In this document: in pieces, positions 243-34,283 of the stretch | Layout: every line of letters starts with the position of its first letter | Position numbering within the stretch: position 1 is the first letter of the stretch | Source: Flavobacteriaceae bacterium | GTDB lineage: Bacteria > Bacteroidota > Bacteroidia > Flavobacteriales_C > GCA-002722245 | Direction: 5' to 3' | DNA length: 64,000 nucleotides | Assembly (NCBI GenBank): GCA_964230605.1 | Contig: CAXRIN010000058.1 | Location: forward strand, 10,969 to 74,968 | Notes under the pieces: generated by a model | The model's database searches: none | Told to the model about the DNA's origin: nothing | What the model saw: only the letters and a program-made list of their open reading frames with translations | Position numbers and translations under genes: made by a program

Positions 243-1799
243 ATGGAGAATCGTTTGGATTACTTGGTTATTGGAGGAGGAATCGCAGGATTAAGTTTTG
301 CACTTAAAGCTGCTGATACTGGTGTTGTTGGGTTGATTACGAAAGAAAACACCCAAGAATCCAATACATCTTATGCTCAGGGCGGAATTGCTGGAGTTTG
401 GACAGAAACGGATGATTTTGAAAAACACATTGCTGATACACTTGATGCTGGAGCTGGGTTAAATAAAAAAGAGATTGTAGAAATTGTTGTTAAAGAAGCA
501 AAAACAAGAATTGACGAATTAATAGCATGGGGAACTAAATTTGATAAAAACCGAAAAGGTGACTATGATCTTGCAAAAGAAGGAGGCCATTCGGAAAACA
601 GAATCCTTCATTACAAAGACATTACAGGAAAAGAGATTGTAAGGGCTTTACTTGAACAAGTAGAGCAGCATCCTAACATTCATATTTATACAGACCACTT
701 TGCGATTGATATTATTACTCAGCACCATTTAGGTGAAAAAATCACAAGAAAAGAAGGAAATATTGAGTGTTATGGAGCTTACGTTTTAAACAAAGTAACC
801 AAAGAAATTGAAACTATCTTAGCCAAAAATGTGATAATGGCTACAGGTGGCGCTGGTCTTGCTTACAAATCCACAACAAATCCACTTATTGCTACTGGTG
901 ATGGAATTGCCATGGCATACCGAGCAAAGGCAGAGGTTAAAGACATGGAGTTTGTTCAATTTCACCCTACCTCTCTTTACAATCCAGGTTCTTATCCATC
1001 CTTTTTAGTTTCCGAAGCCGTTAGAGGTTTTGGTGGTGTTTTAAGGGATCAAAACGGGAATGAGTTTATGCAGAAATATGACGAGCGTGGTTCATTAGCT
1101 CCTCGTGATATTGTTGCTAGATCAATTGATACCGAGATGAAAATTCACGGTGAAGATTGCATGTATTTGGATTGTACGCATTTGAATATGAAAAAATTCA
1201 AAGCTCATTTTCCTAATATTTATAATAAATGTAAATCCTTGGGTATTGACCCTGCATTTGACTACATCCCTGTAGTTCCAGCAGCTCACTATACTTGCGG
1301 AGGTATTGTTGTTGATGAACACGGGCAATCATCAATTAAAAACCTTTATGCCATTGGAGAGTGTTCGTGTACTGGATTGCATGGCGCTAACAGATTAGCA
1401 AGTAATTCATTACTAGAGGCGATTGTATTTTCACATCGTGCTTTCCTAAAATCGAGTGAAAATATTACTGCAAAGGATTTTAAAAATAACGTTCCAAATT
1501 GGGATGCTTCAGGAACTGAAGCTCCTGAGGAAATGGTTCTTATCACTCAAAGTTTACGTGAAGTACAAGGCATAATGAGTTCGTATGTAGGAATTGTAAG
1601 AAGTGATTTGCGTTTAAAACGAGCTTTGGACAGACTTGAAATTCTTTACCGAGAAGTTGAAGAATTGTACGAAAAAACAACTCCATCCCAAAAGCTTTGT
1701 GAAACAAGGAACTTAATTAATGTAGCCTATCTTATAATTAAATTCGCGTCGAATAGAAAAGAAAGTGTTGGATTACACTACTCGTTGGACTATAATTAA
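243..1799 (+). CDS. nadB: L-aspartate oxidase
   Basis: FAD Rossmann motif DYLVIGGGIAGLSFA at the N-terminus. HYTCGGI and GECSCTGLHGANRLASNSLLE motifs of the aspartate oxidase/succinate dehydrogenase flavoprotein family are present, and length is about 520 aa. The ORF track starts at TTG 225; I prefer the first ATG at 243 (MENRLDY). Confidence 0.9.
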   Translation: MENRLDYLVIGGGIAGLSFALKAADTGVVGLITKENTQESNTSYAQGGIAGVWTETDDFEKHIADTLDAGAGLNKKEIVEIVVKEAKTRIDELIAWGTKFDKNRKGDYDLAKEGGHSENRILHYKDITGKEIVRALLEQVEQHPNIHIYTDHFAIDIITQHHLGEKITRKEGNIECYGAYVLNKVTKEIETILAKNVIMATGGAGLAYKSTTNPLIATGDGIAMAYRAKAEVKDMEFVQFHPTSLYNPGSYPSFLVSEAVRGFGGVLRDQNGNEFMQKYDERGSLAPRDIVARSIDTEMKIHGEDCMYLDCTHLNMKKFKAHFPNIYNKCKSLGIDPAFDYIPVVPAAHYTCGGIVVDEHGQSSIKNLYAIGECSCTGLHGANRLASNSLLEAIVFSHRAFLKSSENITAKDFKNNVPNWDASGTEAPEEMVLITQSLREVQGIMSSYVGIVRSDLRLKRALDRLEILYREVEELYEKTTPSQKLCETRNLINVAYLIIKFASNRKESVGLHYSLDYN

Positions 1800-1829
1800 A
1801 AGTAAGGGCAGATTTTAAAAATGCTTAAC

Positions 1830-2456
1830 TTATTTTGCCCACTTCTTGATTTCTGCAAGCGTTGAAGAATCTCCTTCCCAGTTTTGAAACTCCATTTTAC
1901 CTGGTCCTTTGTATGATGCAAACCAAGTTTGGACGATTTGCTTAACAGATTCTGGCAATTCGTTGTAACTTGAAATTCCTAAAACATTCAAGTCTTTATT
2001 AAGCGGAACAGCTATGATTTTATGATCTTCTTCGCCTCTATCCAAAAGTTTTAGCGTAGCAATAGGCTGAATAGCCAAAACTGATCCTTGCGGCACAGTT
2101 TCTCCTAATATTAAAACGTCTAAAGCATCTCCATCTCCACCTCTATCTTTATCCATTAAAGTGCCAGGAAGAAATCCATAATTACCAGGATAAGGCAGAA
2201 ATTTTACGACTCTTTCTTTACCATCTATGATTTCACATTCGAAGGATTTAGAGTCGTAATTATACTCATATTTATGATTAGTTCCAGCAGGAATTTCAAT
2301 TACAGCCTGCATGTGACCAAGTTCATTTTTTAATGGCGTTTTCCTATGATCAGGAAGAATTTCTTTAGAAGCCGAATTTAGTCCATCAACTCCTACCCCG
2401 TCATTTCCGCACGAAAGAAGAAAAAATGAAGCAAGTAAAATCAAAAAGAATCTCAT
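1830..2456 (-). CDS. ppa: Family I inorganic pyrophosphatase with lipoprotein signal peptide
   Basis: PPase motifs EIPAGTNHKYEY, YPGNYGFLPGTL and GGDGDALDVLIL. The N-terminus MRFFLILLASFFLLSCG is a signal peptide plus lipobox. The start ATG overlaps the upstream stop (TAATG at 2454-2458). Confidence 0.85.
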   Translation of the reverse strand: MRFFLILLASFFLLSCGNDGVGVDGLNSASKEILPDHRKTPLKNELGHMQAVIEIPAGTNHKYEYNYDSKSFECEIIDGKERVVKFLPYPGNYGFLPGTLMDKDRGGDGDALDVLILGETVPQGSVLAIQPIATLKLLDRGEEDHKIIAVPLNKDLNVLGISSYNELPESVKQIVQTWFASYKGPGKMEFQNWEGDSSTLAEIKKWAK

Positions 2457-3094
2457 TACACTTGCTCTTTGTAATAAATTTTAACTTCAGCTACATCTTT
2501 AAGGAAATCAATATTTCCAACGCTTACTTTGAAAACCTCTAAACCAGTTCTCTCTTTTAAATCAGCAATTAACTCAGCTTCTTTCTCTGGTTTAATCATA
2601 TCTATCTTCTCGTAAACTATAGTCTTACTTCTTTCATGATTATTAAACCAAATCGTTTCAATCCCATAGGTTGTTGCAACTATCATAAGATCCACAAAAA
2701 TAATCTCTACGTGACTGATTTTTTTATTTGATAATGCATTAATCATTGCCAAACCTATTACAATGAACAGATAAGTCATTTCCTTAAATGGAATTGTCTC
2801 TGTACGATATCTAATTATTCCAAAAACAGCGAATAATCCGAATGCGAATCCCATTTCCATGTTTGTTTTTCTAAAAAGCACACAAACAAAGAAGGTAATG
2901 ATGTTAAAAATGATGAATGTAAACAGGTAATCCTTATCTCTATTATTACGATAAAAGATGTATCGAACTGTTATAAATAGAAAAGTGAAGTTTAGTAAAA
3001 ACTTAAAAATCAACTTCCAGAAATCGTCTGCATTGAAGATTTCCATTCCAAATAATCTAACAACTTCAGCTGTTTCCATTCCAAATATTCCCAT
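2456..3094 (-). CDS. DUF4956-like multi-pass membrane protein
   Basis: Several hydrophobic helices plus a GLFAVFGIIRYRTETIPFKEMTYLF segment that I recognise as DUF4956-like, and a soluble C-terminal tail. The start is uncertain: ATG at 3094, 3079 or 3046. Confidence 0.6.
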   Translation of the reverse strand: MGIFGMETAEVVRLFGMEIFNADDFWKLIFKFLLNFTFLFITVRYIFYRNNRDKDYLFTFIIFNIITFFVCVLFRKTNMEMGFAFGLFAVFGIIRYRTETIPFKEMTYLFIVIGLAMINALSNKKISHVEIIFVDLMIVATTYGIETIWFNNHERSKTIVYEKIDMIKPEKEAELIADLKERTGLEVFKVSVGNIDFLKDVAEVKIYYKEQV

Positions 3095-3860
3095 GATCTT
3101 GATGTATTTTGTTTAAATAGAGCATGTTGCTCTTGAATTTATTGTATTTAAGATGGCTGTTCAGTAATGTAGCACCTGAAGCATATTTGCTGAAACTAGC
3201 TTGACGAATTCCCTTATCCTTCAAAACCTGCATCACTTTTGAACTTCTGTTAACCTTTTCCTGCTTAACCTCTGCTATTACTAAGTTATCTAGTTTCTTG
3301 TCTATTTCTCCTTTTGCAAAACCTAGAGAAAAGTCAATCGTTAATCTTTCTTTATCAGTTTTGCTCACCAAAGTTATTCTTGAGAAACTATTAGTCAAAA
3401 CATGAATTAAATTATCCACCTCAAAAGGTGTTTTTTCATTCAAAAATTCGGTGTCAATCGAATCAAAATTGTCTAAATCAACCCACGACTTAATTCGAGA
3501 TTTTAAAGTTTTACCCTTATTATTCTTGAATTTAACTTCAAGGAAAGAAAGATCCGAACCAACATATTCTCTGTATCTTACTTTATACCTGTTTTGCTTT
3601 CCATTTTGATGGGCAGTGAACATGTAAAAGTCTGATGTGTCAAAGTAATCGGTTTTATAGTTGGCAAATCTTTTCCCTTTTATTTCTAAAGACTTATAAA
3701 AAGGTTGCACAGCCTTTAAGATTTCCGGCAATAGTTTAGCTTCAAACACAAACTTTGTGTCTGTTCTGTCCATTAAACTAACTCCATCCATTTCAGCCAA
3801 ATTGATTGGCTCAAATGTTTGTAGTTCATTTACTACGCTATTTAACTGTTGCTTTTCCAA
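3066..3860 (-). CDS. VTC domain (polyphosphate-polymerase-like, CYTH/triphosphate-tunnel superfamily) protein
   Basis: Segments LMDRTDTKFVF, YKSLEIKGKRFANYKTDYFDT, NRYKVRYREY and SFLEVKFKNNKGKTLKSR match the basic-residue tunnel pattern of bacterial VTC domain proteins. No signal peptide or TM helix. The ORF begins with TTG at 3860, and the conserved N-terminal segment lies upstream of the first ATG. Confidence 0.7.
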   Translation of the reverse strand: MEKQQLNSVVNELQTFEPINLAEMDGVSLMDRTDTKFVFEAKLLPEILKAVQPFYKSLEIKGKRFANYKTDYFDTSDFYMFTAHQNGKQNRYKVRYREYVGSDLSFLEVKFKNNKGKTLKSRIKSWVDLDNFDSIDTEFLNEKTPFEVDNLIHVLTNSFSRITLVSKTDKERLTIDFSLGFAKGEIDKKLDNLVIAEVKQEKVNRSSKVMQVLKDKGIRQASFSKYASGATLLNSHLKYNKFKSNMLYLNKIHQDHGNIWNGNS

Positions 3861-5637
3861 ACTCGTTCCCGTATAGAATCCCTCTTACGTCTTCAGTATA
3901 TTTATCTACAGATTTACCATCTAGCGTTAAACTAGATTTTGTTTCAATCAAGAAATCCTTTTTAAAATCATTATACTTAATGTTTGTTCCTTCAATTACG
4001 GATGGTCCAAATTCCTTTTTCTTTTGAAATGCACAAAAAACAACCTCGGAATTCTTTACCTCAGAATTAGCAATTTTTATTGATGATTTGTCTTTTGCAG
4101 TGATGGCTAATGACGCTCCATCAATTACAATTTGATCAACATCCATAGCACTTGCCTCTCCAGAACTTAAAGCTTTATCAGCTACTTCAATAAACGTACA
4201 ACCAACAATTTTCACTTGACTTCCAGAAACATCGATTCCATCATTTCCTAATTTCCTAAAAGTCGTATTACTTATTAATCCATCACTAAAATCAGCATCG
4301 AAAGCATCTGAAAAAGTATTTTCAAACAAACAACTATCAACTACAAAAGGATATGAACGGAACAAATTCAATCCATCCTCACTTTGATTATTCAAGAATT
4401 TACTATTCTTTACTGTGACTGGTGATTCATAAAAAGTGACTGCACTTGGCAATTTCCAATTCATGAATTCCAAATTCTTTAATCCATCAAATGTGGCATT
4501 TTTCACACTAGATGGCAATTTTGCATTTATTACATGTAAACCTCTTCCAGAAGAATCGGATGTGGTAATTGTAAGTCCATTTATTTGAACAGGAGAAAAA
4601 CTCAAAATGAAACCATCATTTATTAAATCTATTTTTTGTCCTTCAGAAAACTCAATTTTCACACCCTTTGGAGCAATTACGTTATCGGAAATTACCGTTT
4701 GATTATCCTTTAATATATACTTCCCATTTTGTTTGTGGAAATACTTTAAAAATGCATCTTGATTAAAACAAGAAACTGTATCAACAAATAAATTTTGAGC
4801 TTTAAATGTTTTTAGTTCTATTCCGCTCGACTCAACTAAACTCTTCTGCTCATCAGTAAAACTTAAAGAAGCCATCAATTGATTATCTCCTTCCAACTTT
4901 CCTCTTACATTGTCTGCAGTTGCTTCTTTTTCGAAACGAGCATAAGGCTCTATTAAATTAGAAACAGGGTTAAGATAATAAACAAAGCTAATATGCTTGC
5001 TTTCAGATAAATTAAAGGCTTTTAAAGTAGATAAGACTGTGATTGTTTTTTCCCAATCAAACAAACATTGCGTTGCTAACACGTTTGTTTTCCAACTTTG
5101 AATTCTAGACTTTAGTTTAGTAATTCCTTCATCTGTAATTCCTTTTGGTGTAGATAAAACATCGAGATCTTCATTAACAATAGAGAATAAAATTCCCTCT
5201 CTGTTACTATTACTTTCAATTAATTGCTTTTCAATCCCTTCTTGATAAAAAGCTTCACCTAGAGTATCCTTGAATTGAACCCCCATTAAAGAACAATCAA
5301 AACCAATTAATTTTTGTGCTTTTAAAGCTTTTTGAAATGAAACTAATTGTTTAAATATAACCTGATCATCTTCAGAAGATATCCAGAAAAAATCTAATTC
5401 TCTTTTACTTAGTAGAGTGGATTTCTTTTTAGTTGAAAGCGTGAACCCATTTTCGTTTTTAATGATCTCAACTTTAACCTCTTGGTCATCAAATTTAGCT
5501 TTGTACTTTTTGTCTTCATTAATGGAATTTAGTTTTGCATCTAACTCCAAATCAACAACAATTTCAGCCTTGTTTTTCTTATCTCCACAAGACAATAAAA
5601 TCAAGCTAAACAAGCCTAAAGTGAATATTCTTTTCAT
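3838..5637 (-). CDS. Lipoprotein with C-terminal right-handed parallel beta-helix repeats; N-terminal part possibly CotH-like
   Basis: MKRIFTLGLFSLILLSCG is a signal peptide plus lipobox. The C-terminal 250 aa carry repeated short beta-helix turns (DAFDADFSDGLISNTTF, GNDGIDVSGSQVKIVGCTF, ADKALSSGEAS, ITAKDKSSIKIANSEV). The CotH resemblance of the N-terminal region is only motif-level and from memory. Confidence 0.5.
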   Translation of the reverse strand: MKRIFTLGLFSLILLSCGDKKNKAEIVVDLELDAKLNSINEDKKYKAKFDDQEVKVEIIKNENGFTLSTKKKSTLLSKRELDFFWISSEDDQVIFKQLVSFQKALKAQKLIGFDCSLMGVQFKDTLGEAFYQEGIEKQLIESNSNREGILFSIVNEDLDVLSTPKGITDEGITKLKSRIQSWKTNVLATQCLFDWEKTITVLSTLKAFNLSESKHISFVYYLNPVSNLIEPYARFEKEATADNVRGKLEGDNQLMASLSFTDEQKSLVESSGIELKTFKAQNLFVDTVSCFNQDAFLKYFHKQNGKYILKDNQTVISDNVIAPKGVKIEFSEGQKIDLINDGFILSFSPVQINGLTITTSDSSGRGLHVINAKLPSSVKNATFDGLKNLEFMNWKLPSAVTFYESPVTVKNSKFLNNQSEDGLNLFRSYPFVVDSCLFENTFSDAFDADFSDGLISNTTFRKLGNDGIDVSGSQVKIVGCTFIEVADKALSSGEASAMDVDQIVIDGASLAITAKDKSSIKIANSEVKNSEVVFCAFQKKKEFGPSVIEGTNIKYNDFKKDFLIETKSSLTLDGKSVDKYTEDVRGILYGNEFGKATVK

Positions 5638-5651
5638 TCGAAAATTTTGGG

Positions 5652-5659
5652 CAAATGTA
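5652..5659 (-). promoter_or_regulatory. Bacteroidota-type -7 box (TACATTTG) upstream of the beta-helix/VTC operon
   Basis: The minus strand reads TACATTTG, matching the TAnnTTTG consensus, 14 nt upstream of the ATG at 5637. Confidence 0.4.
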
Positions 5660-5674
5660 GAACAAAATTATAAA

Positions 5675-5911
5675 TTATACATATTCACCTCGATGAGGCT
5701 TTAGGTCATCCCTTAATTGAATCATATAATTTTTAGTAGTCAAAATATACGCCAAATAGTAATGGGGAAAAATCTCATCGCAATCAGCTGTTGTATTTTC
5801 TAAACCTTTAGCCTCAATATACTCTCTTACGTGCTTAACATGATGCTCTGCAACCTCTTTTGCATCAATACTTCTTAAATCCCAAATCAACTTTATTTTC
5901 TCATCACTCAT
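5675..5911 (-). CDS. Small hypothetical protein (78 aa)
   Basis: ORF MSDEKIKLIWDLRS...HRGEYV starting at the internal ATG 5911. The upstream part of the 121-aa track ORF is low-complexity and crosses a terminator-like hairpin. No recognisable family. Confidence 0.4.
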   Translation of the reverse strand: MSDEKIKLIWDLRSIDAKEVAEHHVKHVREYIEAKGLENTTADCDEIFPHYYLAYILTTKNYMIQLRDDLKPHRGEYV

Positions 5912-6004
5912 AATTTCAAAAATAAAGCTTCGTTTTGACTTATATTTCTTATCAGATAAAATTATTAAAATAAGTAATTGCTTTATTCTACTTAAAGAGA
6001 TCCT

Positions 6005-6035
6005 AAAAAACAAAAGCCACGCTTCTTGCGGGGCT
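6005..6035 (-). terminator. Putative Rho-independent terminator of the polysaccharide/M20 operon
   Basis: On the minus strand AGCCCCGC / GCGTGGCT forms an 8-bp stem with one mismatch and a 5-nt loop, followed by TTTGTTTTTT. It lies about 100 nt downstream of the M20 stop. Confidence 0.45.
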
Positions 6036-6134
6036 ATCATTTATCCATTCTAGGATGCCTAGATTTTTACTAGGACTTTTATTGTATCCATTGCAAAGAT
6101 GGTGAATCAACTTCATAATTGAGGAAATTGAATC

Positions 6135-7202
6135 TTAAGAAACCTTTAACTCTTCTCCCAATTGAGTTAACACTGAGATATATTTTGGGATAGCTTGTTC
6201 TAATTCTTCTATATAAATAAATTCATCGGCAGTGTGAGATCTTGCTGAATCTCCAGGACCCATTTTTACGCTCTCACAAGGCATAAGTGCCTGATCTGAA
6301 AGGGTTGGGGACCCGTATGTGTTGATTCCTAATTTTTCGGCAACTATCCTAATTGGATGATTTGGATTAACTCCACTTGAATTTAATCTGGTAGATCTTG
6401 CTATTACTTCACAGTTAACATTAGATTTAATAATATCCAAAACTTCCTGGTTTGTATACTTATCATTTACACGAACATCCACAACAAAATCGCATTCTGC
6501 GGGAACAACATTGTGCTGACTACCAGCCTTTATAACGGTAACACTCATGCTTATTCCCCCAATTTCATCCGAGTGATTTGGAAAGTCATAAGTATTAAAC
6601 CAATTAATGTCTTCTATAGCTCTGTAAATTGCATTTACGCCTTCTTTTCGCGCTGCGTGACCAGATTTACCTTTTGCCTTACAATCCAAAACCATTAAAC
6701 CTCTTTCGGCAATAGCAATGTCCAACAAAGTAGGTTCACCAACTATAGCGAAATCAATTTTTGGCAACGAGGGAAATAAGTATTCCATTCCATCTTTACC
6801 ACTAATTTCCTCTTCTGCTGAGGCAGCAAAAACCAAATTAAACGGTAAGTTTTCTTGGTTATAAAAATGAAGAAACGTTCCCAATAAAGTCACTAGAGCT
6901 CCTCCCGCATCATTACTTCCTAAGCCATATAATTTGCCATCTTGAATCTGTGCCTTATAAGGTTCTTTAGTGTAGCCTTTATTTGGCTTTACCGTGTCTA
7001 AATGTGAATTTAAAAGGATAGTATACTTATCCTCTGAAAAATTTTGATTTTTAGCCCAAACGTTGTTTTTATCTCGAACGAAAGGAACTCCATTTTTTGC
7101 TAAGATATTCTCTATATACTCTGCTGCTGGTTCTTCTTCTTTACTCAAAGATTTTATATCTATTAAACCAGCAAGTGTTTCAACAGGATTAATAGGCATC
7201 AT
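6135..7202 (-). CDS. M20 family metallohydrolase (ArgE/DapE-like deacylase)
   Basis: Motifs SHLDTVKP, GLGSNDAGGALV, AASAEEEISG and GKSGHAAR are typical of the acetylornithine deacetylase/succinyl-DAP desuccinylase family. The start (ATGATG at 7197-7202) lies 14 nt inside the upstream gene. Confidence 0.75.
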   Translation of the reverse strand: MMPINPVETLAGLIDIKSLSKEEEPAAEYIENILAKNGVPFVRDKNNVWAKNQNFSEDKYTILLNSHLDTVKPNKGYTKEPYKAQIQDGKLYGLGSNDAGGALVTLLGTFLHFYNQENLPFNLVFAASAEEEISGKDGMEYLFPSLPKIDFAIVGEPTLLDIAIAERGLMVLDCKAKGKSGHAARKEGVNAIYRAIEDINWFNTYDFPNHSDEIGGISMSVTVIKAGSQHNVVPAECDFVVDVRVNDKYTNQEVLDIIKSNVNCEVIARSTRLNSSGVNPNHPIRIVAEKLGINTYGSPTLSDQALMPCESVKMGPGDSARSHTADEFIYIEELEQAIPKYISVLTQLGEELKVS

Positions 7203-8841
7203 AGTAGAAGTTATTTAAGGTTGTTCTTAAACCAACGTATACAAAACGAGTTTCGTTTGACGATAGAGTTTTTCGTGATAGAGAACGATCCGTTAATCCG
7301 ATTTCGAAATATAAACGAGCTCTTGGGTTCACCATAAAAGCATATCGAACATCCATATAATTCAATTTATTTAAGTCACCTTGACCAATCGAGTATCCAG
7401 TTAATCCTTCATCTCCATTAATATCTACACGATTAGTATTGTATCCATAAAAGATATTTCCACCATGGTTTACTCCTAAAGTATCTCTTCCTATTTCCGA
7501 CCACACCACTTTCAAAGTAAACTTATGACGCTTGTATTTATAACGAACGATTCCCACAGCCTCCTGGAAATTTGCACCAAGTGGATGAGCCAAAGGCTCA
7601 TTCATTTGAGTGTGAGCATTGGCACTATCAAAATGAGTATAAGTAAATGGACGAACAGCGTTATATTCTAACTGAGCACTTAATCCGTAAACGTTAGCAA
7701 TATTATATGCTTTAACTCCGATTTGAGCTCCATATTTATTTCGCCAAGACCCGTTAAAATCCCTGAAATCTTGGGTATTAAATTCGTCTAGAATAAACTG
7801 CCCATAAGCCGTAAACTTATCTGAAATCTTATACTTAGCCGTAGCTCCCAAAATCACATTATCAGCCGATCCATTTTGCCATTCAACCGGTCTCATAAAA
7901 ATTACCGGATTCATATATTGCCAATCAAATCCTTTGTCTGCTTTTAACCAAGAAACCGATTCGTAAAGGGAAAAGTTAATTTTCTTTGTAATATTCCAGC
8001 TTAAATAATGAACAGCTAGGTACTTTTGCGTCCAGTTTTGATCTGCATTTGCTCCAGGTCCAAAACCAATATGGCTTAATTGTGCCCAAAGATTTACGTA
8101 CTTAATATTCCAAACATTCGTTTCTAATTTGAAATAAGGGTAGTTGAAAGCATTATCACTCAATAATAGCGATCGATAACCATCTCCTAAGAAGTTTTTC
8201 CCGTGTCCTAAATAAGCAGTGAAATACTTATTTCCTCTATAACCAACAGCACCAGAAGCAAAAGCCCAGTCTGCTCCTGCATTTTCTTTGAAAATCTTAT
8301 ATCTTCCTTGTCCAGGAACTACATATCCAGACTGCGCATAGCTGTTTATGTATGGCAATAATTTCGCTTGATTTTCATAAAAAGCGGACTCAAAAAACAC
8401 TTTTTCGCCAATTTGTCCGGATAACCAATAACCTCTCGTATTATTCCAAAAGTATTCCTTCAAATAAGCTTCACGACCTGTTTGTAAACCCAAAAGCATA
8501 TTCCCGCGGATTTTTAACCCGTCGTTATTGACATATACCAGATCCTCATCCATTAACTTGTTTTCAGACCATCGTAAGAATTTCGCCCAATTTGAAGTTG
8601 GCAATAAATATAACCTGTTCGTATCCGTAACCGTTGAATCAATCGAATCCATATTGATTACCTTTTGAACATCCTGGTAGAAATATGGCTTAATAGAAGT
8701 GTGACTATTGGATTTTGTTTCATTAAGGTACATCTCAACAAATGCATTTTCGTCGTGATCCAAAGGATAAAATAATTGCTGAGCGTAAGAAACTGCCACT
8801 CCGAAAAATAGAATGGCTAATAAGCGAAATTTAGTAATCAT
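7189..8841 (-). CDS. Capsule-assembly Wzi family / RemB-like outer-membrane beta-barrel protein (copy 2)
   Basis: Signal peptide MITKFRLLAILFFGVAVSYAQ. GHGKNFLGDGYRSLLLSDNAFNYPY core, alternating beta-strand pattern and a C-terminal aromatic residue (YYDAY). Paralog of the upstream gene. Confidence 0.55.
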   Translation of the reverse strand: MITKFRLLAILFFGVAVSYAQQLFYPLDHDENAFVEMYLNETKSNSHTSIKPYFYQDVQKVINMDSIDSTVTDTNRLYLLPTSNWAKFLRWSENKLMDEDLVYVNNDGLKIRGNMLLGLQTGREAYLKEYFWNNTRGYWLSGQIGEKVFFESAFYENQAKLLPYINSYAQSGYVVPGQGRYKIFKENAGADWAFASGAVGYRGNKYFTAYLGHGKNFLGDGYRSLLLSDNAFNYPYFKLETNVWNIKYVNLWAQLSHIGFGPGANADQNWTQKYLAVHYLSWNITKKINFSLYESVSWLKADKGFDWQYMNPVIFMRPVEWQNGSADNVILGATAKYKISDKFTAYGQFILDEFNTQDFRDFNGSWRNKYGAQIGVKAYNIANVYGLSAQLEYNAVRPFTYTHFDSANAHTQMNEPLAHPLGANFQEAVGIVRYKYKRHKFTLKVVWSEIGRDTLGVNHGGNIFYGYNTNRVDINGDEGLTGYSIGQGDLNKLNYMDVRYAFMVNPRARLYFEIGLTDRSLSRKTLSSNETRFVYVGLRTTLNNFYYDAY

Positions 8842-10387
8842 AATACAGGTTGAATAAAGAAGTTCTGAAACCTGCGTAAAGGTAATGATGATTTTCTTTA
8901 TTACCGGCCAACCATTGAGTTCTATTTTGATATCCCAGCTCCAGCATCAGCATATATTTTGGATTTAGGATATATCTAACTTTTGTATCCCAATGAATCT
9001 GTTTATAGGGTGTTCCATACCCGGCTTTGTAACCATTCTCAAATTCACGATCAAAATAAGGCTTGAAAATATCCTTACCGTTTGAAATTGAATCTACCAA
9101 CTCCTCTCCACCATTTAAGTATACTACCTTCGCATTCAAATTCCATCTTTTAACTCTATAATTTACAACTCCGATAAGTTCTTGAAAATTAGCCCCATAT
9201 GGATGAGCAAGAGAGTTATAATTGTGTCCATAATTTAATCCAGATGTCCTGTGAGAATAAGTAAATGGCCGAATAAAGTTGTGCTCTGCTAAAATCACTA
9301 AATTCTCAATTGGCAAATTATGGAGTTTAACACCTAATTGATATCCATATTTGTTAGCCCACCAAGTAGGATTATTCAAAAGATTATCTGAATGTAATTC
9401 ATCCATAATCAATTGACCATAAAGGTTAGTTGTTTTATGAGGATCCCAACTAACATTTAATCCCATTAACATATTATCCGGAGAGCCGATGTTATACTCT
9501 TGAGGCCTCATAATAACGAATGGGTTCAAATAATTGATCTCTAATGCATTTCTATCTATTGAATCACCTTGCCATATAACCGCTTCAAAAACAGCAATTT
9601 TTAATTTCTTAGTTGCTAAAAAATCCAGAAAATGAAAGCTTCCATATTTTTTACGTTTTAACCCATCGCCTACCAAATCGTTTGTGAAATCAATAAACTC
9701 GGCAATAATATTGGAGTATTTAATTCTTCCGATATTTAAATCATTCTTTAAGAAAGGATAGTTTCCAGCGGCATCAGACAATAATAAGCTTCGATAACCA
9801 TTTCCTAAAAAGTTTTTTCCATGACCTGCGGTTAACGTATAATATTTATTTGCTTCATACACGAGTCCGCCATAAGAAACAGCATATTCTGATTTTGTAT
9901 ATGGATTTTTTACCTCGGCTTCTCCGGGCGCAACAGCTGTATTTTCAACGATACGTGAAATTCTTGGGTCAAACTGCTGATGATTTTCATAATAGGCAGA
10001 AACCCACTTAAATTTGGTTCCAATAGTCCCCCTTGCTACAGCGCCTCTTCTTAAACTTATGTAATCATTATTGCCTAATTCACAATCGCAGTAAGGATTA
10101 ATTCGGACAGAGTAATTTTCATTTTTAAAACCAATCACATTTTTGTTTAAAAACCAATCAAAAATGGAATATTTTGAACTCAAATTAAAAGTATCAGAAG
10201 ATAATGTTTCAAATACAAAATGACTTTCAAAACTAGAATTACTCGAATTCAACATTGTATCACCAACTGATAATTCTTTATCAAACATCCATTCAATCTC
10301 ATGATTCATAAGATTAAACTGCCCTTTTGAGTAAAAGGAAAAGAAAGAAAAAAGTAATAAAACAAACTTGAATTTAGCTTGCAACAC
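8831..10387 (-). CDS. Capsule-assembly Wzi family / RemB-like outer-membrane beta-barrel protein (copy 1)
   Basis: Signal peptide. GHGKNFLGNGYRSLLLSDAAGNYPF core that aligns with the neighbouring gene, and a C-terminal YYDY. Confidence 0.55.
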   Translation of the reverse strand: MLQAKFKFVLLLFSFFSFYSKGQFNLMNHEIEWMFDKELSVGDTMLNSSNSSFESHFVFETLSSDTFNLSSKYSIFDWFLNKNVIGFKNENYSVRINPYCDCELGNNDYISLRRGAVARGTIGTKFKWVSAYYENHQQFDPRISRIVENTAVAPGEAEVKNPYTKSEYAVSYGGLVYEANKYYTLTAGHGKNFLGNGYRSLLLSDAAGNYPFLKNDLNIGRIKYSNIIAEFIDFTNDLVGDGLKRKKYGSFHFLDFLATKKLKIAVFEAVIWQGDSIDRNALEINYLNPFVIMRPQEYNIGSPDNMLMGLNVSWDPHKTTNLYGQLIMDELHSDNLLNNPTWWANKYGYQLGVKLHNLPIENLVILAEHNFIRPFTYSHRTSGLNYGHNYNSLAHPYGANFQELIGVVNYRVKRWNLNAKVVYLNGGEELVDSISNGKDIFKPYFDREFENGYKAGYGTPYKQIHWDTKVRYILNPKYMLMLELGYQNRTQWLAGNKENHHYLYAGFRTSLFNLYYDY

Positions 10388-11495
10388 TTTTACTTGATTT
10401 TGATTTTTTTACTGGTTCAGGATGAACAATTTTCAAAGCTCCTTTATTATTTCTCCTGCGTAATACAAAAGAAGGAATTGTTGTAAATATAGATGCGATA
10501 ACTATTTCAACAGCAAGTAACTCCAAACTTCCAATATTTCTTAAAGAGTAAATGGTAACAATAAAAAGAACATTAAAAGTCATAATAGTGACCGACGCTT
10601 TCATGTGAGAAAAGCCAAGTTCTAACAATCTATGATGTATATGATTCTTATCTGGATTTAATGGACTTTTACCCTTTAAAGCTCTAAAAATAAATACCCT
10701 TAAAGTATCAAAAAGAGGAACAATTAGAATTCCAAATGCAAGAATTGGAACCGAATTTAATCCCCAGTTGGACTCCGGGCTAAGTTGAATGAAATAAATG
10801 GTTTGAACTCCAATTATTAACCCAAGGATCAATGATCCTGTATCACCCATAAATATTTTAGCTGGCGTTTTATTAAACCATAAAAACCCAAACAAAGATC
10901 CAACGAGAGAGGCTGAAATGATCGCCAAATTCAAATGTCCTGTCACATAAAACCACACTCCTAAAAAAGAAGAAACTACAACAGACACACCTGCGGATAA
11001 CCAATTGATACCATCAATTAAGTTAAAACCATTCATAATGACAACTAATGTGAAGATTGTAAGTGTAGCTGAAATTTCTGGAGTTAATTGATCAATGCCT
11101 AAAAACCCATACATACTAGTAATCCTTACACCTCCTAAAACAACCAAAATTCCAGCTGCTAAAAGTTGACCCATTAATTTTTTAATTGGAGCAGTAATTA
11201 GAATATCATCCTTTATTCCAATAAAAAAAATAATCATTAATGCTCCCACCAAGTAATTATAATTTAATGCTCCATCACTTACGATAGTAAGACTTGAACT
11301 AATCATAAAACCAGCAAAAATTGCTAGTCCACCTAAAGTGGGAATAACTTTTTCGTGAGATTTTCTTTCGTCTGGAACATCATACAAATGCTTCAAATAA
11401 GAAACTCTAATTACAGAAGGAATTGCAATTAATACGATTAATAGGCTAGATATGAAAGCTAGAACTAGTTGTAGCATATACTTTGGCTGGGTCAA
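10374..11495 (-). CDS. MraY/WecA-family polyprenyl-phosphate N-acetylhexosamine-1-phosphate transferase (GT4 family)
   Basis: About 10 TM helices with motifs IGIKDD, NLIDGINWL and MGDTGSLILG, typical of WecA/WbpL/MraY-type initiating transferases. Confidence 0.85.
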   Translation of the reverse strand: MTQPKYMLQLVLAFISSLLIVLIAIPSVIRVSYLKHLYDVPDERKSHEKVIPTLGGLAIFAGFMISSSLTIVSDGALNYNYLVGALMIIFFIGIKDDILITAPIKKLMGQLLAAGILVVLGGVRITSMYGFLGIDQLTPEISATLTIFTLVVIMNGFNLIDGINWLSAGVSVVVSSFLGVWFYVTGHLNLAIISASLVGSLFGFLWFNKTPAKIFMGDTGSLILGLIIGVQTIYFIQLSPESNWGLNSVPILAFGILIVPLFDTLRVFIFRALKGKSPLNPDKNHIHHRLLELGFSHMKASVTIMTFNVLFIVTIYSLRNIGSLELLAVEIVIASIFTTIPSFVLRRRNNKGALKIVHPEPVKKSKSSKSVAS

Positions 11496-11557
11496 ATATA
11501 CGTAATAAAATTTTCCAAGCTAAGTAAAAGACTTATTCGGTAATGTTTGGTTGTCTG

Positions 11558-12769
11558 TTATTTAATAATCTCCTGCAGGTAATTACGCATTAAATCAGCC
11601 ATTTTTACACGATCAAAATCTTTAGCTAACTCCAAACATCCCTTTTGACAATTAGCATATGTATTTTTATCAGATTTTAATTTCACTAATTTCTCCAGAA
11701 AATCTTCTTTGTTTTCAGGTTCAAAGCATAACCCTGCTCCATATTTGTTTATGATATCTTGACTCTCCCCCTCAACTCCTAATAATATTGGAATTTGCAT
11801 AGCTGAGTTTTCAAAAATTTTAGAAGGTATTACCGTTTTAAATAAATCACTTTTTTTCAAAGGCACCAATGAAACATCCATCAATGATAAAACATCTGGG
11901 ACTTTCTCTTTTGGCATACTATCTAAGAAGGTAATATTTTTCAGATCTAATTTTAAAGCAAGATCTTTCAATTTATCCTTCTCTGCTCCATCACCCATTA
12001 AAATAAGATGTAAATCCAAGTCATCCTTTGGCCAAGAATTTAGAATAAAATCCAATTTATGGGCCATTCCATGCGTCCCAACATATCCTACAACGAATTT
12101 TCCTTCTAAGCCTAACTCTGAAACCAGTTCCTCATCTTTTTCTCTTTTAGAAAATCTACTCAAATTGGCTCCATTTCTTACAACCTTGATCTTATCTCCA
12201 TCAATTCCTCGGCTAATTAAATTCTGCTTAAATGACTCTGTAACAGAAATAACCCTAGTTGATCTCTTGTAAAGTCTTAATTCTATTTTTTCTAAAATCT
12301 TGAAAATTTTACTATCACCACTTATAGCCCCAACAGCTCTAATTGACTCGGGCCAAATATCTCTTAATTCGAAAATCCATGGCTTTCTTTTAAAAACAGA
12401 TAATGTTTCGGCAGTCCATGTTGTGAAAAATTGTGGTGAAGTACCAATTATTACATCAGCCTTTTGAAAAAGTCCAGCCCAAAATGCCATGAAAGCAAAG
12501 CTCATAAAATCTATAATTCTTTTAGCAAAACCCTCATTTGCAGAAATATAAGACCATACTCTGATAACTTTTATTCCTTCTATCTCCTCCTTTTGATACA
12601 ATTTATTCTTATACCCATCATATACCTTTCCTTTAGGAAAATTTGGAGCACAAGTTATAACAGTTACTTCATCTCCTTTTTTAACCCATTCTTTACAGTG
12701 CTCAAAAGTTCTGGTTGCTGGCGCATTAACTTCTGGTGGAAAATTATCGGTTATAAAAAGGATTCTCAT
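11558..12769 (-). CDS. Glycosyltransferase family 4, WbuB-like
   Basis: N-terminus MRILFITDNFPPEVNAPATRTFEHCKEW and a GT-B C-terminal EGESQ/E-x7-E region. Resembles WbuB-type N-acetyl-amino-sugar transferases. Confidence 0.75.
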   Translation of the reverse strand: MRILFITDNFPPEVNAPATRTFEHCKEWVKKGDEVTVITCAPNFPKGKVYDGYKNKLYQKEEIEGIKVIRVWSYISANEGFAKRIIDFMSFAFMAFWAGLFQKADVIIGTSPQFFTTWTAETLSVFKRKPWIFELRDIWPESIRAVGAISGDSKIFKILEKIELRLYKRSTRVISVTESFKQNLISRGIDGDKIKVVRNGANLSRFSKREKDEELVSELGLEGKFVVGYVGTHGMAHKLDFILNSWPKDDLDLHLILMGDGAEKDKLKDLALKLDLKNITFLDSMPKEKVPDVLSLMDVSLVPLKKSDLFKTVIPSKIFENSAMQIPILLGVEGESQDIINKYGAGLCFEPENKEDFLEKLVKLKSDKNTYANCQKGCLELAKDFDRVKMADLMRNYLQEIIK

Positions 12770-12782
12770 TTTTTAAAATTAC

Positions 12783-14381
12783 TTATTTATTACAGCTAGT
12801 TAAGGTAACCTTCGTTTTAAGTTGCTCTTTAAATATAACTTCTATCATATTGGCATTTTCGGTTTTATTGTATCCATGGGCATAAGTATACTCTTTAATG
12901 CGAATACTTTCAGCTCCCTCGAATTCAATTTCACAACCATCAACCTTTACCTGATTATCTATCAATTCAACTCCGATATTAGGGTGAAAATGGTAATACG
13001 AACTACTCTTGGAAGTCAGTATCCCTTTTGAAACCATATTATCTTCAATAAAAATCGTCTTTGTTTGAAATTCAATTTTTCTTTGATGATATATCCCGTA
13101 CCTTTTGTAACCATCATGATAACCTGTGATAGAGTTATCAGACTCATCGGTAATTACAGCCTTAGCCCTTCTTCCTACTCTGAAACCTCCCCAAACTTCA
13201 GATTGATCAATTTTATCATATCTAACTGTATTATGACTAGAAGTACTTCTCTCTCTTTGACGACGGAATCCTACATCATATGTGGAAATTCCAGGATCAA
13301 CAATGACTGGCTGACCTTGGCAATTTAAAAGAAAGTTAAAAGTATCTGAATGGGCGTGTCCTGGGATGTATGAAGGTCCAATTTCTCCGTAATCAACAAA
13401 CAATTCAACTTCACTGTCCCTGAACATTCTATACCCTGAATCTTTCAATTCTGATTTTTTCCAATTGATATTTAATCTTTTAGCATAGTCAAACAATTCC
13501 TCTGATGTTACCGAAATACCTTCAGTCGAATCATTTACTCGAGGTGTTGTTCCATTTGAAAAAGTTACTGCATCTAACCAACCCAACATTTTTTCAGCTG
13601 TTGCAAGCAAAAATTCTTCGAAAACCAAATCCTCATACACATCTCTATTATTCTTACATAAATTGTAAGTATCTAGTAATCTATGTAATATAATTTTATG
13701 GTACATCGGACTTAATTCAAAATGAGCCCCATCCCCTAGAATTTGTTCTCGCAATTCAATTGATACAATCTCTTTTCCTTTTTGATATAATTCATTTCCC
13801 TTAAAATAATACCCTCCAAATAGAAGTGAAAATCCATTTTCTAACAAATGATTTCCTAAAAGATGATATTCTAATTTATCCAATAGAATACGATACTGAC
13901 TGTATAGATATAAATCAATTGATTTCTTCTCAATTTGGTGAAGAGATAAAAATTTAACCCAGTTAATCCCTCTTAATGAAATTGGATAAGGTTCATTGGC
14001 GTTTTTTAAATCTCTAATCTGATCGATGAAGAGATAAATTAAAGCTTGACCAATTTCCGAAGACATTTCTTTCTGATTCAGAAAGTCGAAATAATTCAAG
14101 TTGTAAGCCCATAATTTGCCATTTTCCATGTAATCCCAATCGATACCATCTGAAAATGTAACGGACTTGTTTAAAAACTTAAAACTGTTGGATTTGTAAG
14201 ACTCTCCGTTAGGAATAATCTCAGTAAAATTCAACGGTTTTCCTTTTCTGTATAAGTTAAACTTATACTTAAAGTTTACAAAGCTTCTATACTTAGCTCT
14301 AAATGCATAAAATAATCTAAATGCAATTTGTTTAAGCTTTAGATGAATTACTGTTCTAAGAAGTAAAAATATATTGCTCAT
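12783..14381 (-). CDS. Heparinase II/III family (alginate-lyase-fold) protein, no signal peptide
   Basis: GHAHSDTFNFLL motif and the surrounding C-terminal beta-sandwich pattern of heparinase II/III-like proteins, with an N-terminal alpha-helical toroid-like half. The N-terminus is not signal-peptide-like. Confidence 0.7.
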   Translation of the reverse strand: MSNIFLLLRTVIHLKLKQIAFRLFYAFRAKYRSFVNFKYKFNLYRKGKPLNFTEIIPNGESYKSNSFKFLNKSVTFSDGIDWDYMENGKLWAYNLNYFDFLNQKEMSSEIGQALIYLFIDQIRDLKNANEPYPISLRGINWVKFLSLHQIEKKSIDLYLYSQYRILLDKLEYHLLGNHLLENGFSLLFGGYYFKGNELYQKGKEIVSIELREQILGDGAHFELSPMYHKIILHRLLDTYNLCKNNRDVYEDLVFEEFLLATAEKMLGWLDAVTFSNGTTPRVNDSTEGISVTSEELFDYAKRLNINWKKSELKDSGYRMFRDSEVELFVDYGEIGPSYIPGHAHSDTFNFLLNCQGQPVIVDPGISTYDVGFRRQRERSTSSHNTVRYDKIDQSEVWGGFRVGRRAKAVITDESDNSITGYHDGYKRYGIYHQRKIEFQTKTIFIEDNMVSKGILTSKSSSYYHFHPNIGVELIDNQVKVDGCEIEFEGAESIRIKEYTYAHGYNKTENANMIEVIFKEQLKTKVTLTSCNK

Positions 14382-30875: not shown

Positions 30876-30883
30876 TATATTTG
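30876..30883 (+). promoter_or_regulatory. Bacteroidota-type -7 box (TATATTTG) upstream of wza
   Basis: TATATTTG lies 18 nt upstream of ATG 30902. Confidence 0.4.
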
Positions 30884-30901
30884 GGGTCTAAAAAGCTAAA
30901 T

Positions 30902-33208: not shown

Positions 33209-33209
33209 T

Positions 33210-34283
33210 ATGAAAAAATTTATTCATCAAAATAGTATTAACTATTTAGCTATTTTCAAGTTTCTTCTTTCAAAGAAAAAAACCATCATAATATTAGGGT
33301 TTGTTGGTGCAGTATTTGGTGGAATAAAAGCATATATATCCCCAAAGATTTACTCTTCGTCGATAACAATTATTCCAAATAAAGCGTCTAAAGGGTTTGG
33401 TGGTAAATTTAATGGACTTGCCTCTCTAGCCGGAATTTCACTTGGTGGAGTTGACAATAGTGACATTCCTCCAATTACCTACGATAAAGTTCTTGAGAGT
33501 TATGATTTTAACCATAAATTATTAAATACTAAGCTACCTATCGTAGATAGTGATACTATGATGACTTTCATTGAGTATCAAGAAAAATTTAAGAGGAATG
33601 GGATTGGAAAATTTATAAAGGGTTTAATTGGTTTTAATAATGATAATGATAGTCTTCCAATCGACGAACTATCCGAAATTGCTCAAAAAAACGAATTAAA
33701 ACTTTATACTAATGACGAGTATAAAAATTTGATAAAATTTCAATCTATGGTGAATATAGACGTTGATGACCTCAACGATATTTTTACCATTCGAGTAAAG
33801 TTTCCAGATAAAATTGCAGCCCCATATTTGGCTGAAAAAGCAACAATATTGCTGCAAGATTTTATAATAAATGCCAAAATCAAAAAAGCCAAAGCTGATT
33901 ATGAGTTTTTGAAAAGTCGTTATGATGAAGAAAAAGAAAAGTTTTTAGAAGCTCAATTAGCTTTAGCTAAGTTTGAAGATACGCACATCAACATTGTTTC
34001 ATCTGTTCAAAATACCCAAAGAACAATTCTTAAATCAGAATATCAATTAAGAAATCAAGTTTTCACTCAACTATCAATGCAACTGGAATCTAGTCAAATG
34101 ACTTTACAAAAGGACACGCCTGTTTTTACAGTTGTTAAAGGTGCAAATGTACCTCGATTAAAAACTGAGCCTAGACCTATTAAGTTGGTCATAGTGAATG
34201 GAATCTTGTTCGGTTTCTTATATGTGGTTTTTATCCTGTTAAAAGAACTAAAAAATCAGTTTTTACCAAAAGAAACTGAATAA
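33210..34283 (+). CDS. Wzz/PCP chain-length determinant protein lacking a tyrosine-kinase domain
   Basis: N-terminal Wzz-type segment (LAIFKFLLSKKKTIIILGFVGAVFGGIKAYISPKIYSSS), a coiled-coil middle and a C-terminal TM (LVIVNGILFGFLYVVFILL). There are no Walker A/B motifs or a Tyr-rich tail. The ATG is 2 nt after the wza stop. Confidence 0.7.
   Translation: MKKFIHQNSINYLAIFKFLLSKKKTIIILGFVGAVFGGIKAYISPKIYSSSITIIPNKASKGFGGKFNGLASLAGISLGGVDNSDIPPITYDKVLESYDFNHKLLNTKLPIVDSDTMMTFIEYQEKFKRNGIGKFIKGLIGFNNDNDSLPIDELSEIAQKNELKLYTNDEYKNLIKFQSMVNIDVDDLNDIFTIRVKFPDKIAAPYLAEKATILLQDFIINAKIKKAKADYEFLKSRYDEEKEKFLEAQLALAKFEDTHINIVSSVQNTQRTILKSEYQLRNQVFTQLSMQLESSQMTLQKDTPVFTVVKGANVPRLKTEPRPIKLVIVNGILFGFLYVVFILLKELKNQFLPKETE

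Follow-up and report, generated by a model that had tools for sequence, protein, structure and literature searches.

A VTC-DUF4956 gene pair joined to a predicted lipoprotein pyrophosphatase and a CotH-derived beta-helix lipoprotein in Flavobacteriales: a candidate module for phosphoanhydride chemistry at the cell membrane

Organization of the four-gene module

Four overlapping genes linking a VTC-domain protein to a DUF4956 membrane protein, a family I inorganic pyrophosphatase (PPase) and a beta-helix lipoprotein lie near one end of a stretch of DNA from a Flavobacteriaceae bacterium. This stretch, referred to below as the window, comprises 64,000 nucleotides (nt) of contig CAXRIN010000058.1 (positions 10,969-74,968, forward strand). 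Bacterial polyphosphate (polyP) is attributed to PPK1 and PPK2, and family I PPases are usually cytoplasmic and soluble. An earlier note on this DNA had described four tightly overlapping minus-strand genes running from 5637 to 1830 and read them as a membrane-coupled machine for polyP or triphosphate processing. The open reading frame (ORF) list confirmed the four ORFs, their coordinates and their junctions. The features of the module are the following:

3838..5637, minus strand: gene 1, truncated CotH-like domain followed by a right-handed beta-helix, predicted lipoprotein of 599 amino acids (aa) (Pfam Beta_helix, AlphaFold2, Foldseek)
5587..5637, minus strand: predicted signal peptide and lipobox of gene 1, MKRIFTLGLFSLILLSC, Cys17 (PS51257-style rule; orthologue N-termini)
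4927..5508, minus strand: CotH-like remnant of gene 1, about aa 44-237, without kinase catalytic motifs (hhalign, column inspection)
3868..4740, minus strand: beta-helix domain of gene 1, about aa 300-590, with an invariant Asp/Lys ladder (Pfam, alignments, AlphaFold2/Foldseek)
3066..3860, minus strand: gene 2, soluble VTC-domain triphosphate-tunnel protein of 264 aa, TTG start (Pfam VTC, AlphaFold2)
2456..3094, minus strand: gene 3, DUF4956 membrane protein of 212 aa with 4-5 transmembrane (TM) segments (Pfam, hydropathy)
1830..2456, minus strand: gene 4, predicted lipoprotein family I PPase of 208 aa (Pfam, alignment to 1QEZ)
2409..2456, minus strand: predicted signal peptide and lipobox of the PPase, MRFFLILLASFFLLSC, Cys16 (PS51257-style rule; conserved in homologues)
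5652..5659, minus strand: TACATTTG, motif resembling the Bacteroidota -7 box, 15 nt 5' of the first start codon

Gene 1 overlaps the VTC gene by 23 nt and the VTC gene overlaps the DUF4956 gene by 29 nt, and the DUF4956 and PPase genes share a single base in a TAATG junction. The TTG start of the VTC gene lines up with the ATG starts of its orthologues (MEKQQ / MERKLL) and the VTC/DUF4956 overlap is kept in homologous loci (numbered here with the prefix L), at 29 nt in L002, L004 and L020 and at 32 nt in L005; these overlaps are therefore not artefacts of start calling. The family identities proposed in the earlier note were borne out by Pfam matches that all exceed the gathering thresholds (Beta_helix 36.5, VTC 74.4, DUF4956 178.6 and Pyrophosphatase 117.8 bits), to which NCBIfam added only sub-threshold PPase equivalog matches. 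Lipoprotein signals were called with a regular expression of PS51257 that requires Lys or Arg in the n-region, an uncharged h-region, [LVI..][AGS]C and a Cys at position 15-35. By this rule both outer products are predicted lipoproteins and the VTC protein has no export signal, as had been claimed.

The -7 box that the note had placed at 5652-5659 is present there as TACATTTG, and an exact or one-mismatch copy of TAnnTTTG lies 15-20 nt 5' of gene 1 in each of the seven orthologous loci compared (the window, L001, L002, L004, L005, L020 and L021), where the upstream genes differ. The motif is not enriched in the window as a whole (78 found versus 103 expected). A sigma-70 scan was uninformative, its promoter-like counts being equal to the shuffled expectation. 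None of the five terminator-like sites found by an intrinsic-terminator scan is on the operon strand, and an Rfam search of the window returned no matches. The module (1500-6000) is slightly AT-richer (GC 0.29-0.33) than the region of nadB and the M20 peptidase gene (0.35-0.37), with a GC content similar to that of the edge of the neighbouring polysaccharide locus.

The VTC-domain protein

The second gene encodes a single-domain protein with neither an SPX domain nor a fused TM segment. Its Pfam VTC match covers aa 32-233 (74.4 bits for a cut-off of 23), and its AlphaFold2 model, a closed triphosphate tunnel of eight strands, has a predicted local distance difference test score (pLDDT) of 91.8. 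The ten best Foldseek matches to this model in the PDB were all tunnel domains of yeast Vtc4, Vtc3 and Vtc2 (E 6e-12 to 3e-10), with query-normalised template-modelling scores of 0.54-0.62 and 12-16% identity to Vtc4. The E. coli triphosphatase YgiF came eleventh (E 9e-10), followed by other enzymes of the CYTH/triphosphate tunnel metalloenzyme group.

An alignment of 45 VTC sequences revealed a large set of invariant, mostly charged residues: R32, D34, K36, R91, K93, R95, R97, E108, K110, K112, K120, R122, R161, T163, E171, R172, T174, D176, E197, K199 and S224-K225-Y226. The PDB was searched with the single sequence and with a 14-sequence profile, and the mapping onto Vtc4 residues combines a weak profile alignment to Vtc2 with the fold search. 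In this weak alignment R95/R97, E197 and S224-K225 correspond to Vtc R264/R266, E426 and S457-K458; R95/R97 fall on the 'RLR' strand, E108/K110 on 'LEKK', R161 on 'TR' and R172/D176 on 'R.T.D'. The R264A/R266A/E426N mutant of Vtc4 has been reported as catalytically dead and K458 of Vtc4 as catalytic. Hydrolytic tunnel enzymes bear an acidic patch of four Glu where Vtc4 has basic residues; if the alignment is right, the K199 that follows E197 is Vtc4-like. Judged from its sequence the protein is a member of the VTC family, a membership that does not by itself separate a polymerase from a triphosphatase. In the published assay polyP was made by Vtc4 only.

The DUF4956 membrane protein

The product of the third gene matches DUF4956 over profile positions 2-169 of 169 (178.6 bits). 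The family is large, with 1,480 representatives at 50% identity (E<=1e-3), and a PDB search with its profile gave no match. The hydropathy of the protein points to 4-5 TM segments, after which comes a soluble C-terminal domain of about 60 residues. Across 18 homologues G82, G86, F88, A89 and F91 are invariant, as is the motif R95-Y96-R97-T98 ... M106-T107-Y108-L109-F110. For the DUF4956 homologue of S. intermedius, a published reading of an AlphaFold2 model proposes an MgtC-like domain of four TM segments and an intracellular ACT domain.

At the N-terminus, a 15-nt direct repeat, TATTTGGAATGGAAA, at 3040-3054 and 3073-3087 duplicates the peptide FGME and offers three in-frame ATG starts (3094, 3079 and 3046). 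The duplication is also found in the closest orthologue, L001; other orthologues begin with MEIFGIP. Apparent DUF4956-CotH and DUF4956-DUF2490 fusions occur among the database proteins (P0371, P0381, P0413). They were set aside as evidence of physical interaction, for their junctions hold complete signal peptides and neighbouring genes have probably been called as one.

The lipoprotein pyrophosphatase

The nearest solved relative of the PPase is the Sulfolobus enzyme 1QEZ (E 2e-20). All family I motifs are present (EIPAG..KYE, YP.NYGF.P.T, DGD..DVL, D....D.K and YK), with a 5-residue insertion before the DGD motif relative to 1QEZ, and from its sequence the protein looks catalytically competent. 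It begins with an N-terminal extension of about 50 residues that carries the lipoprotein signal and is conserved across a Bacteroidota clade. Every orthologue of the module has the signal. Among the 120 best homologues it is detected in 96 under a strict rule and in 108 under a looser one, and the others look like truncated start calls. A start at the internal Met, which the earlier note had named as the observation that would undo the lipoprotein assignment, was set aside in view of this conservation. The PPase is accordingly predicted, from its conserved signal and lipobox, to be lipid-anchored and extracytoplasmic. A literature search for periplasmic or lipoprotein pyrophosphatases found no papers.

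Lipoprotein PPases of the same clade also occur in Fulvivirga and a related contig, in a Saprospiraceae metagenome-assembled genome (MAG) and in one other contig, where they stand alone. In L018 (3234-11799) and L108 such genes lie beside a HisKA/response-regulator pair, a DUF1573 protein and a TonB-type receptor, and in L018, from Fulvivirga kasyanovii, a PhoD phosphatase is encoded about 4 kb away. This setting suggests phosphate acquisition.

The CotH-derived beta-helix lipoprotein

Close homologues of gene 1 (560-630 aa) bear a Beta_helix annotation only. The C-terminal half of the family is 37-43% identical to the C-terminus of proteins of about 860 aa that have an N-terminal Pfam CotH domain, and hhalign matched the two families from one end to the other with probability 100 (E 7e-114). 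In this alignment residues 44-237 of gene 1 correspond to the first part of the CotH region and are followed by a gap of about 215 residues before the beta-helix. The long family matches Pfam CotH, and its profile matches B. cereus CotH 5JD9 (E 3e-15). Gene 1 had no match to Pfam CotH at E<=0.1, and neither its single sequence nor its family profile matched any PDB sequence; its homology to CotH is seen only through the intermediate CotH+beta-helix family and through the fold search. The AlphaFold2 model (pLDDT 88.6, predicted template-modelling score 0.86) gave B. cereus CotH 5JD9/5JDA as top Foldseek matches (E 5e-7, target-normalised template-modelling score 0.44). Next came beta-helix tailspikes, GH87 and GH28 glycanases, AlgG, pectate lyases and NosD.

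Catalysis by CotH requires D228 (catalytic) and D251 (metal-binding) of the B. subtilis protein. In these columns the long relatives have Gly or Ala, with a conserved His one position before the first Asp column and a conserved Asp/Glu two positions after the second. Since hmmalign left the N-terminal domain of gene 1 unaligned on the CotH+beta-helix profile, the hhalign mapping was used: the conserved D/H/N/D of the relatives become K, E, S and F in the window protein, in an alignment that is uncertain at 9% identity. The window family shows no conservation at positions equivalent to the CotH catalytic residues. Both families retain FQEG..KR.IE.N..REG, YYLNP....EP and an Asp/Lys ladder along the beta-helix; the invariant ladder of gene 1 comprises SED..N..R, SDAFDADF, GNDG.D.SGS, DKA.S.GE, KD.S and FQKK.EFGP.

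The lipoprotein N-terminus of gene 1 is conserved in the orthologues of L001, L002, L004, L005 and L006, and the long relatives have an N-terminal TM anchor in place of the lipobox, so that both forms should be tethered outside the membrane. By sequence comparison, gene 1 is a truncated, kinase-dead-looking relative of the membrane-anchored CotH+beta-helix proteins. The CotH resemblance without catalytic Asp residues reported in the earlier note stands; its extent does not, the similar region being residues 44-237 (approximately the N-terminal 40%) and not the N-terminal two thirds.

Conservation and variants of the module

A genome scan with the DUF4956 protein recovered the same four-gene order in the Flavobacteriales MAGs L001, L002, L004 and L005, and in L003 the module is cut by the contig end. 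In the full set of loci, the order is kept in L001, L002, L004, L005, L020-L022, L025 and L026. A beta-helix protein of 558-565 aa followed by VTC, DUF4956 and PPase genes was found in a Crocinitomicaceae MAG and in two ENA contigs, with PPase identities of 49-62% and wholly different flanks (TPR/PD40 upstream, CinA downstream). In total, at least three genomic contexts unrelated to one another keep the four-gene order and its overlapping or abutting junctions, with protein identities of 49-83%. The conserved neighbourhood expected by the earlier note is thus recovered in related genomes.

A metagenome scan with the DUF4956 profile yielded 80 loci, of which 58 could be evaluated upstream and 62 downstream. 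VTC lies directly 5' of DUF4956 in 54 of the 58, and likewise in every genome locus with enough upstream sequence except L006. Downstream of DUF4956 the partners vary. A DUF2490 gene occupies this place in 31 of the 62 loci and a PPase gene in four, to which L029 can be added with a short flank. In all loci with a PPase gene 3' of DUF4956 and a sufficiently long flank, the beta-helix gene accompanies it (L025, L026, L029). Overall, the extracytoplasmic partners of the pair are DUF2490 with or without Cthe_2159, CotH, or PPase. In Bacteroidota the common form has DUF2490, in many cases with a gene for a Cthe_2159 beta-helix lipoprotein after it; the four-gene variant was found in marine metagenomes and marine Flavobacteriales MAGs. 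The core of the module is the VTC-DUF4956 pair, and the form with PPase and beta-helix genes is a minority marine variant.

A small ORF without family match (5675-5911, minus strand; listed as 5675-6040; 78 aa from an internal ATG) precedes the module in the window and in L001. In L002 and L003 the ORF is downstream of the module, flanked by the PPase gene and nadB. Its presence on either side of the module according to lineage is consistent with the four genes moving as a unit. In L006 (1479-3817), from a contig labelled as a Glaciecola MAG, a beta-helix gene of the gene 1 type directly precedes DUF4956; the two are not separated by a VTC gene, and a PPase gene does not follow.

Association with surface-polysaccharide loci

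Three of the long CotH+beta-helix genes (L103, L104 and L105) were examined for their neighbours, and all three adjoin a DUF4956 gene. L103 and L104 are DUF4956-CotH/beta-helix-VTC triads surrounded by genes for Wzy, Wzz, Poly_export, flippases, glycosyltransferases and a priming transferase. L105 has no VTC among its called genes and neighbours glycosyltransferases, an epimerase and WecG. The window itself contains a large surface-polysaccharide locus of Wzx/Wzy type (10374-40084, i.e. from about 10.4 kb to beyond 40 kb), which encodes a GT4 priming enzyme, several GT1 glycosyltransferases, a heparinase II/III-like protein, a pyruvyl transferase, two flippases, two Wzy_C proteins, Wza (30881-33208) and Wzz (33198-34283). 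It starts about 4.7 kb upstream of the module on the same strand. From 16600 to 6135 the minus strand carries closely packed or overlapping genes, the last of which stops about 500 nt short of the module. In L004, the module sits between genes for a carbamoyltransferase and a GT1 on one side and for MBOAT, Acyl_transf_3 and flippase proteins on the other (L004:1620-5360, 9271-14066), in surroundings typical of polysaccharide modification. No polysaccharide neighbours of the module were found in L001, L002, L020 and L021. The link of the module to surface-polysaccharide loci is recurrent but not universal. Given the relatives tied to exopolysaccharide loci and the Wzx/Wzy locus of the window, a link to surface-polymer modification must be considered.

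Two tandem paralogues of 550 and 518 aa (7189-8841 and 8831-10387, minus strand) lie in the intervening region. They have hydrophobic N-termini, share GHGKNFLG.GYRSLLLSD-type motifs, match no Pfam or NCBIfam family, and overlap each other and their neighbours, an M20 peptidase gene and the GT4 priming enzyme gene.

Comparison with known systems

A related arrangement has been described next to Gram-positive pel operons, which are adjoined by accessory genes for CotH, a 'polyphosphate polymerase' (VTC), DUF4956 and DUF4832 (Whitfield et al. 2020). In S. intermedius, deletion of the DUF4956 gene (SIR_1592) or of the CotH gene (SIR_1594) lowers Pel and Pel-dependent aggregation, and the authors of that study speculate on phosphate metabolism. 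The NELoc-2 locus of C. perfringens likewise brings together VTC, a membrane protein annotated as 'tubulin/FtsZ' and CotH. The statement in the earlier note that no such bacterial module had been characterised experimentally holds for biochemistry, a literature search having found no biochemical study of a bacterial VTC-domain protein. It does not hold for genetics, since the deletions in the pel-type cluster are published. The module of the window shares with SIR_1592-1594 the same three families, contiguous on one strand, an exported CotH-type protein and a recurrent, though not universal, tie to extracellular polysaccharide loci. In contrast to the streptococcal cluster, its CotH member is degenerate, about 215 residues shorter, devoid of the conserved motifs, fused to a beta-helix instead of FN3 and predicted to be lipid-anchored. 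The gene order also differs, a lipoprotein PPase is added, and there is neither a pel operon nor a DUF4832 hydrolase. The PPase-bearing cluster is a new version of the known VTC-DUF4956(-CotH) cluster, with a degenerate CotH, lipid anchoring and an added exported PPase.

The VTC-DUF4956-DUF2490(-Cthe_2159) clusters, of which BT3498-99 of B. thetaiotaomicron is an instance, have the core pair in the same orientation and a downstream exported beta-helix lipoprotein of another family. They differ from the window in carrying a signal-bearing DUF2490 protein, which also matches outer-membrane beta-barrel profiles, and Cthe_2159 instead of the CotH-derived beta-helix protein and the PPase.

Reviews of VTC evolution cover eukaryotes only. 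Like the yeast VTC complex, the module has a cytoplasmic tunnel domain, whose best fold matches are the yeast domains and whose residues weakly aligned with R264/R266, E426 and S457-K458 are invariant, and this enzyme has a multi-pass membrane protein as its obligate partner in the genome. A hydrolase of phosphoanhydrides beyond the membrane would be analogous to the vacuolar polyphosphatases. Unlike the yeast complex, the module has no SPX domain, its tunnel domain is unfused, and its partner DUF4956 is unrelated in sequence to the Vtc1-type domain. For the two outer proteins, the comparison is with single enzymes. Gene 1 has the Bacillus CotH kinase (5JD9/5JDA) as the best fold match of its N-terminal domain, but it is only 9% identical to it, lacks equivalents of D228 and D251 and has lost the C-terminal third of the domain. 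Gene 4 has the fold family and the full catalytic motif set of family I PPases (Sulfolobus 1QEZ, E. coli 1INO), from which it departs by its lipoprotein extension, its 5-residue insertion and its place in an operon with VTC and DUF4956.

Interpretation

The reading tentatively favoured here, which comes near to an even balance of probabilities without reaching it, is a scheme of membrane-coupled (poly)phosphate translocation. In this scheme, the VTC protein would draw on a nucleoside triphosphate to make or pass on a phosphoanhydride product, either polyP or a short chain. DUF4956 would fill the role of the yeast Vtc1-type TM domains and pass the product to the periplasmic side, with its invariant basic RYRT motif as a candidate entry site. 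The beta-helix lipoprotein may bind or process the product, or use it on a surface polymer; the recurrence of related triads in exopolysaccharide loci suggests that the final target is a cell-surface polysaccharide. The anchored PPase would hydrolyse pyrophosphate (PPi) or a short-chain end product, conferring irreversibility and recycling phosphate. The strongest new hint of extracytoplasmic phosphoanhydride chemistry is the recruitment, in several lineages, of an apparently intact PPi hydrolase to the outside within an overlapping operon. The machine proposed by the earlier note is upheld at the level of annotation, and its mechanism fits the evidence as an inference. A more specific version, in which the module is the bacterial counterpart of eukaryotic VTC, appears doubtful: a Vtc4-like polymerase docked on DUF4956 would thread polyP across the membrane, CotH/beta-helix proteins would use it and the PPase would clear PPi.

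Several observations weigh against the translocation scheme. Sequence similarity of the VTC protein to yeast Vtc is marginal (PDB E 0.3-0.6, with 0.6 for the profile, to Vtc2 only), and its strand beta1, R32-x-D34-x-K36, is neither the ExExK of hydrolases nor fully basic. Plant and bacterial tunnel enzymes with a near-identical tunnel centre are hydrolases, and polyP synthesis by a bacterial VTC-domain protein would have no biochemical precedent in the literature searched. No similarity of DUF4956 to the Vtc1-type channel of yeast, or to solved structures in general, was detected, and the modelled MgtC-like and ACT architecture of its homologue would be equally compatible with a regulator. No extracytoplasmic partner was recognised by the queries downstream of DUF4956 in 27 of the 62 evaluable loci, and the lipoprotein PPases that stand alone without VTC (48-55% identity) belong to the same clade. 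Finally, the single transcription unit assumed by the scheme is a prediction from gene spacing and sequence.

A regulatory or hydrolytic module without translocation is judged unlikely overall. The VTC protein would then be a tri- or short-chain polyphosphatase or another nucleotide-processing tunnel enzyme, and DUF4956 a membrane sensor or regulator, the pair tuning how surface polysaccharide is made or modified. The polysaccharide itself would be the substrate or ligand of the beta-helix lipoprotein (through binding, or through a lyase or epimerase-like activity), and the PPase, a periplasmic housekeeping enzyme with a role of its own, would have been recruited for co-expression. Tunnel enzymes with Vtc4-like centres are indeed hydrolases, and YgiF follows directly after the yeast domains among the fold matches; those best matches are nevertheless polymerase-family tunnel domains and not hydrolases. 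The matches of the gene 1 beta-helix to GH87, GH28, AlgG, pectate lyases and tailspikes, the location of the triads and of the modules of the window and of L004 within or next to polysaccharide loci, and the Pel phenotype of a DUF4956 homologue published as MgtC-like with an ACT domain all agree with such a module. It leaves unexplained, however, the strict pairing of VTC with a membrane protein (54/58) and the recruitment of a PPi hydrolase outside the membrane in the same overlapping operon of several lineages.

Phosphorus scavenging or storage in a phosphorus-poor ocean is quite improbable. Here the surface PPase, and perhaps the beta-helix protein, would free phosphate from PPi or polyP, and VTC-DUF4956 would capture and store the incoming phosphate as polyP, in the direction opposite to that of the translocation scheme. 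The marine distribution of the four-gene variant would be accounted for, as would the stand-alone clade PPases of Fulvivirga and a related contig, which have a two-component system and a TonB-type receptor as neighbours and, in Fulvivirga, PhoD at a distance of a few kb. The VTC-DUF4956 core is nevertheless common in Bacteroidota of many other habitats (among them BT3498-99) and in Gram-positive pel loci, with no Pho-type contexts. No phosphate transporter or Pho-box-type regulator adjoins the module in the window, and the beta-helix/CotH ancestry points to polysaccharide loci. A neighbourhood without shared function, that is, a chance adjacency of the PPase or beta-helix gene to VTC-DUF4956, to which the variable partners, the many pairs found alone and the occurrence of the PPase clade elsewhere might lend some colour, was set aside as highly improbable, as the four-gene order is conserved in unrelated contexts at 49-83% identity and a PPase gene 3' of DUF4956 is accompanied by the beta-helix gene wherever the flank suffices.

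Implications

If the translocation scheme is true, a third bacterial route to polyP, Vtc4-like and membrane-coupled, would exist beside PPK1 and PPK2. PolyP or phosphoryl donors would then occur in the periplasm or at the cell surface. In the more specific and doubtful version, a bacterial counterpart of VTC, the polyP would provide a phosphoanhydride currency for a compartment free of ATP, and the PPase-bearing variant of Flavobacteriales would be the clearest genomic hint of phosphoanhydride chemistry outside the membrane. The module is tied historically to the CotH+beta-helix proteins of exopolysaccharide loci, and its VTC-DUF4956 core ranges from gut Bacteroides and oral streptococci with a biofilm phenotype to abundant marine Flavobacteriales.

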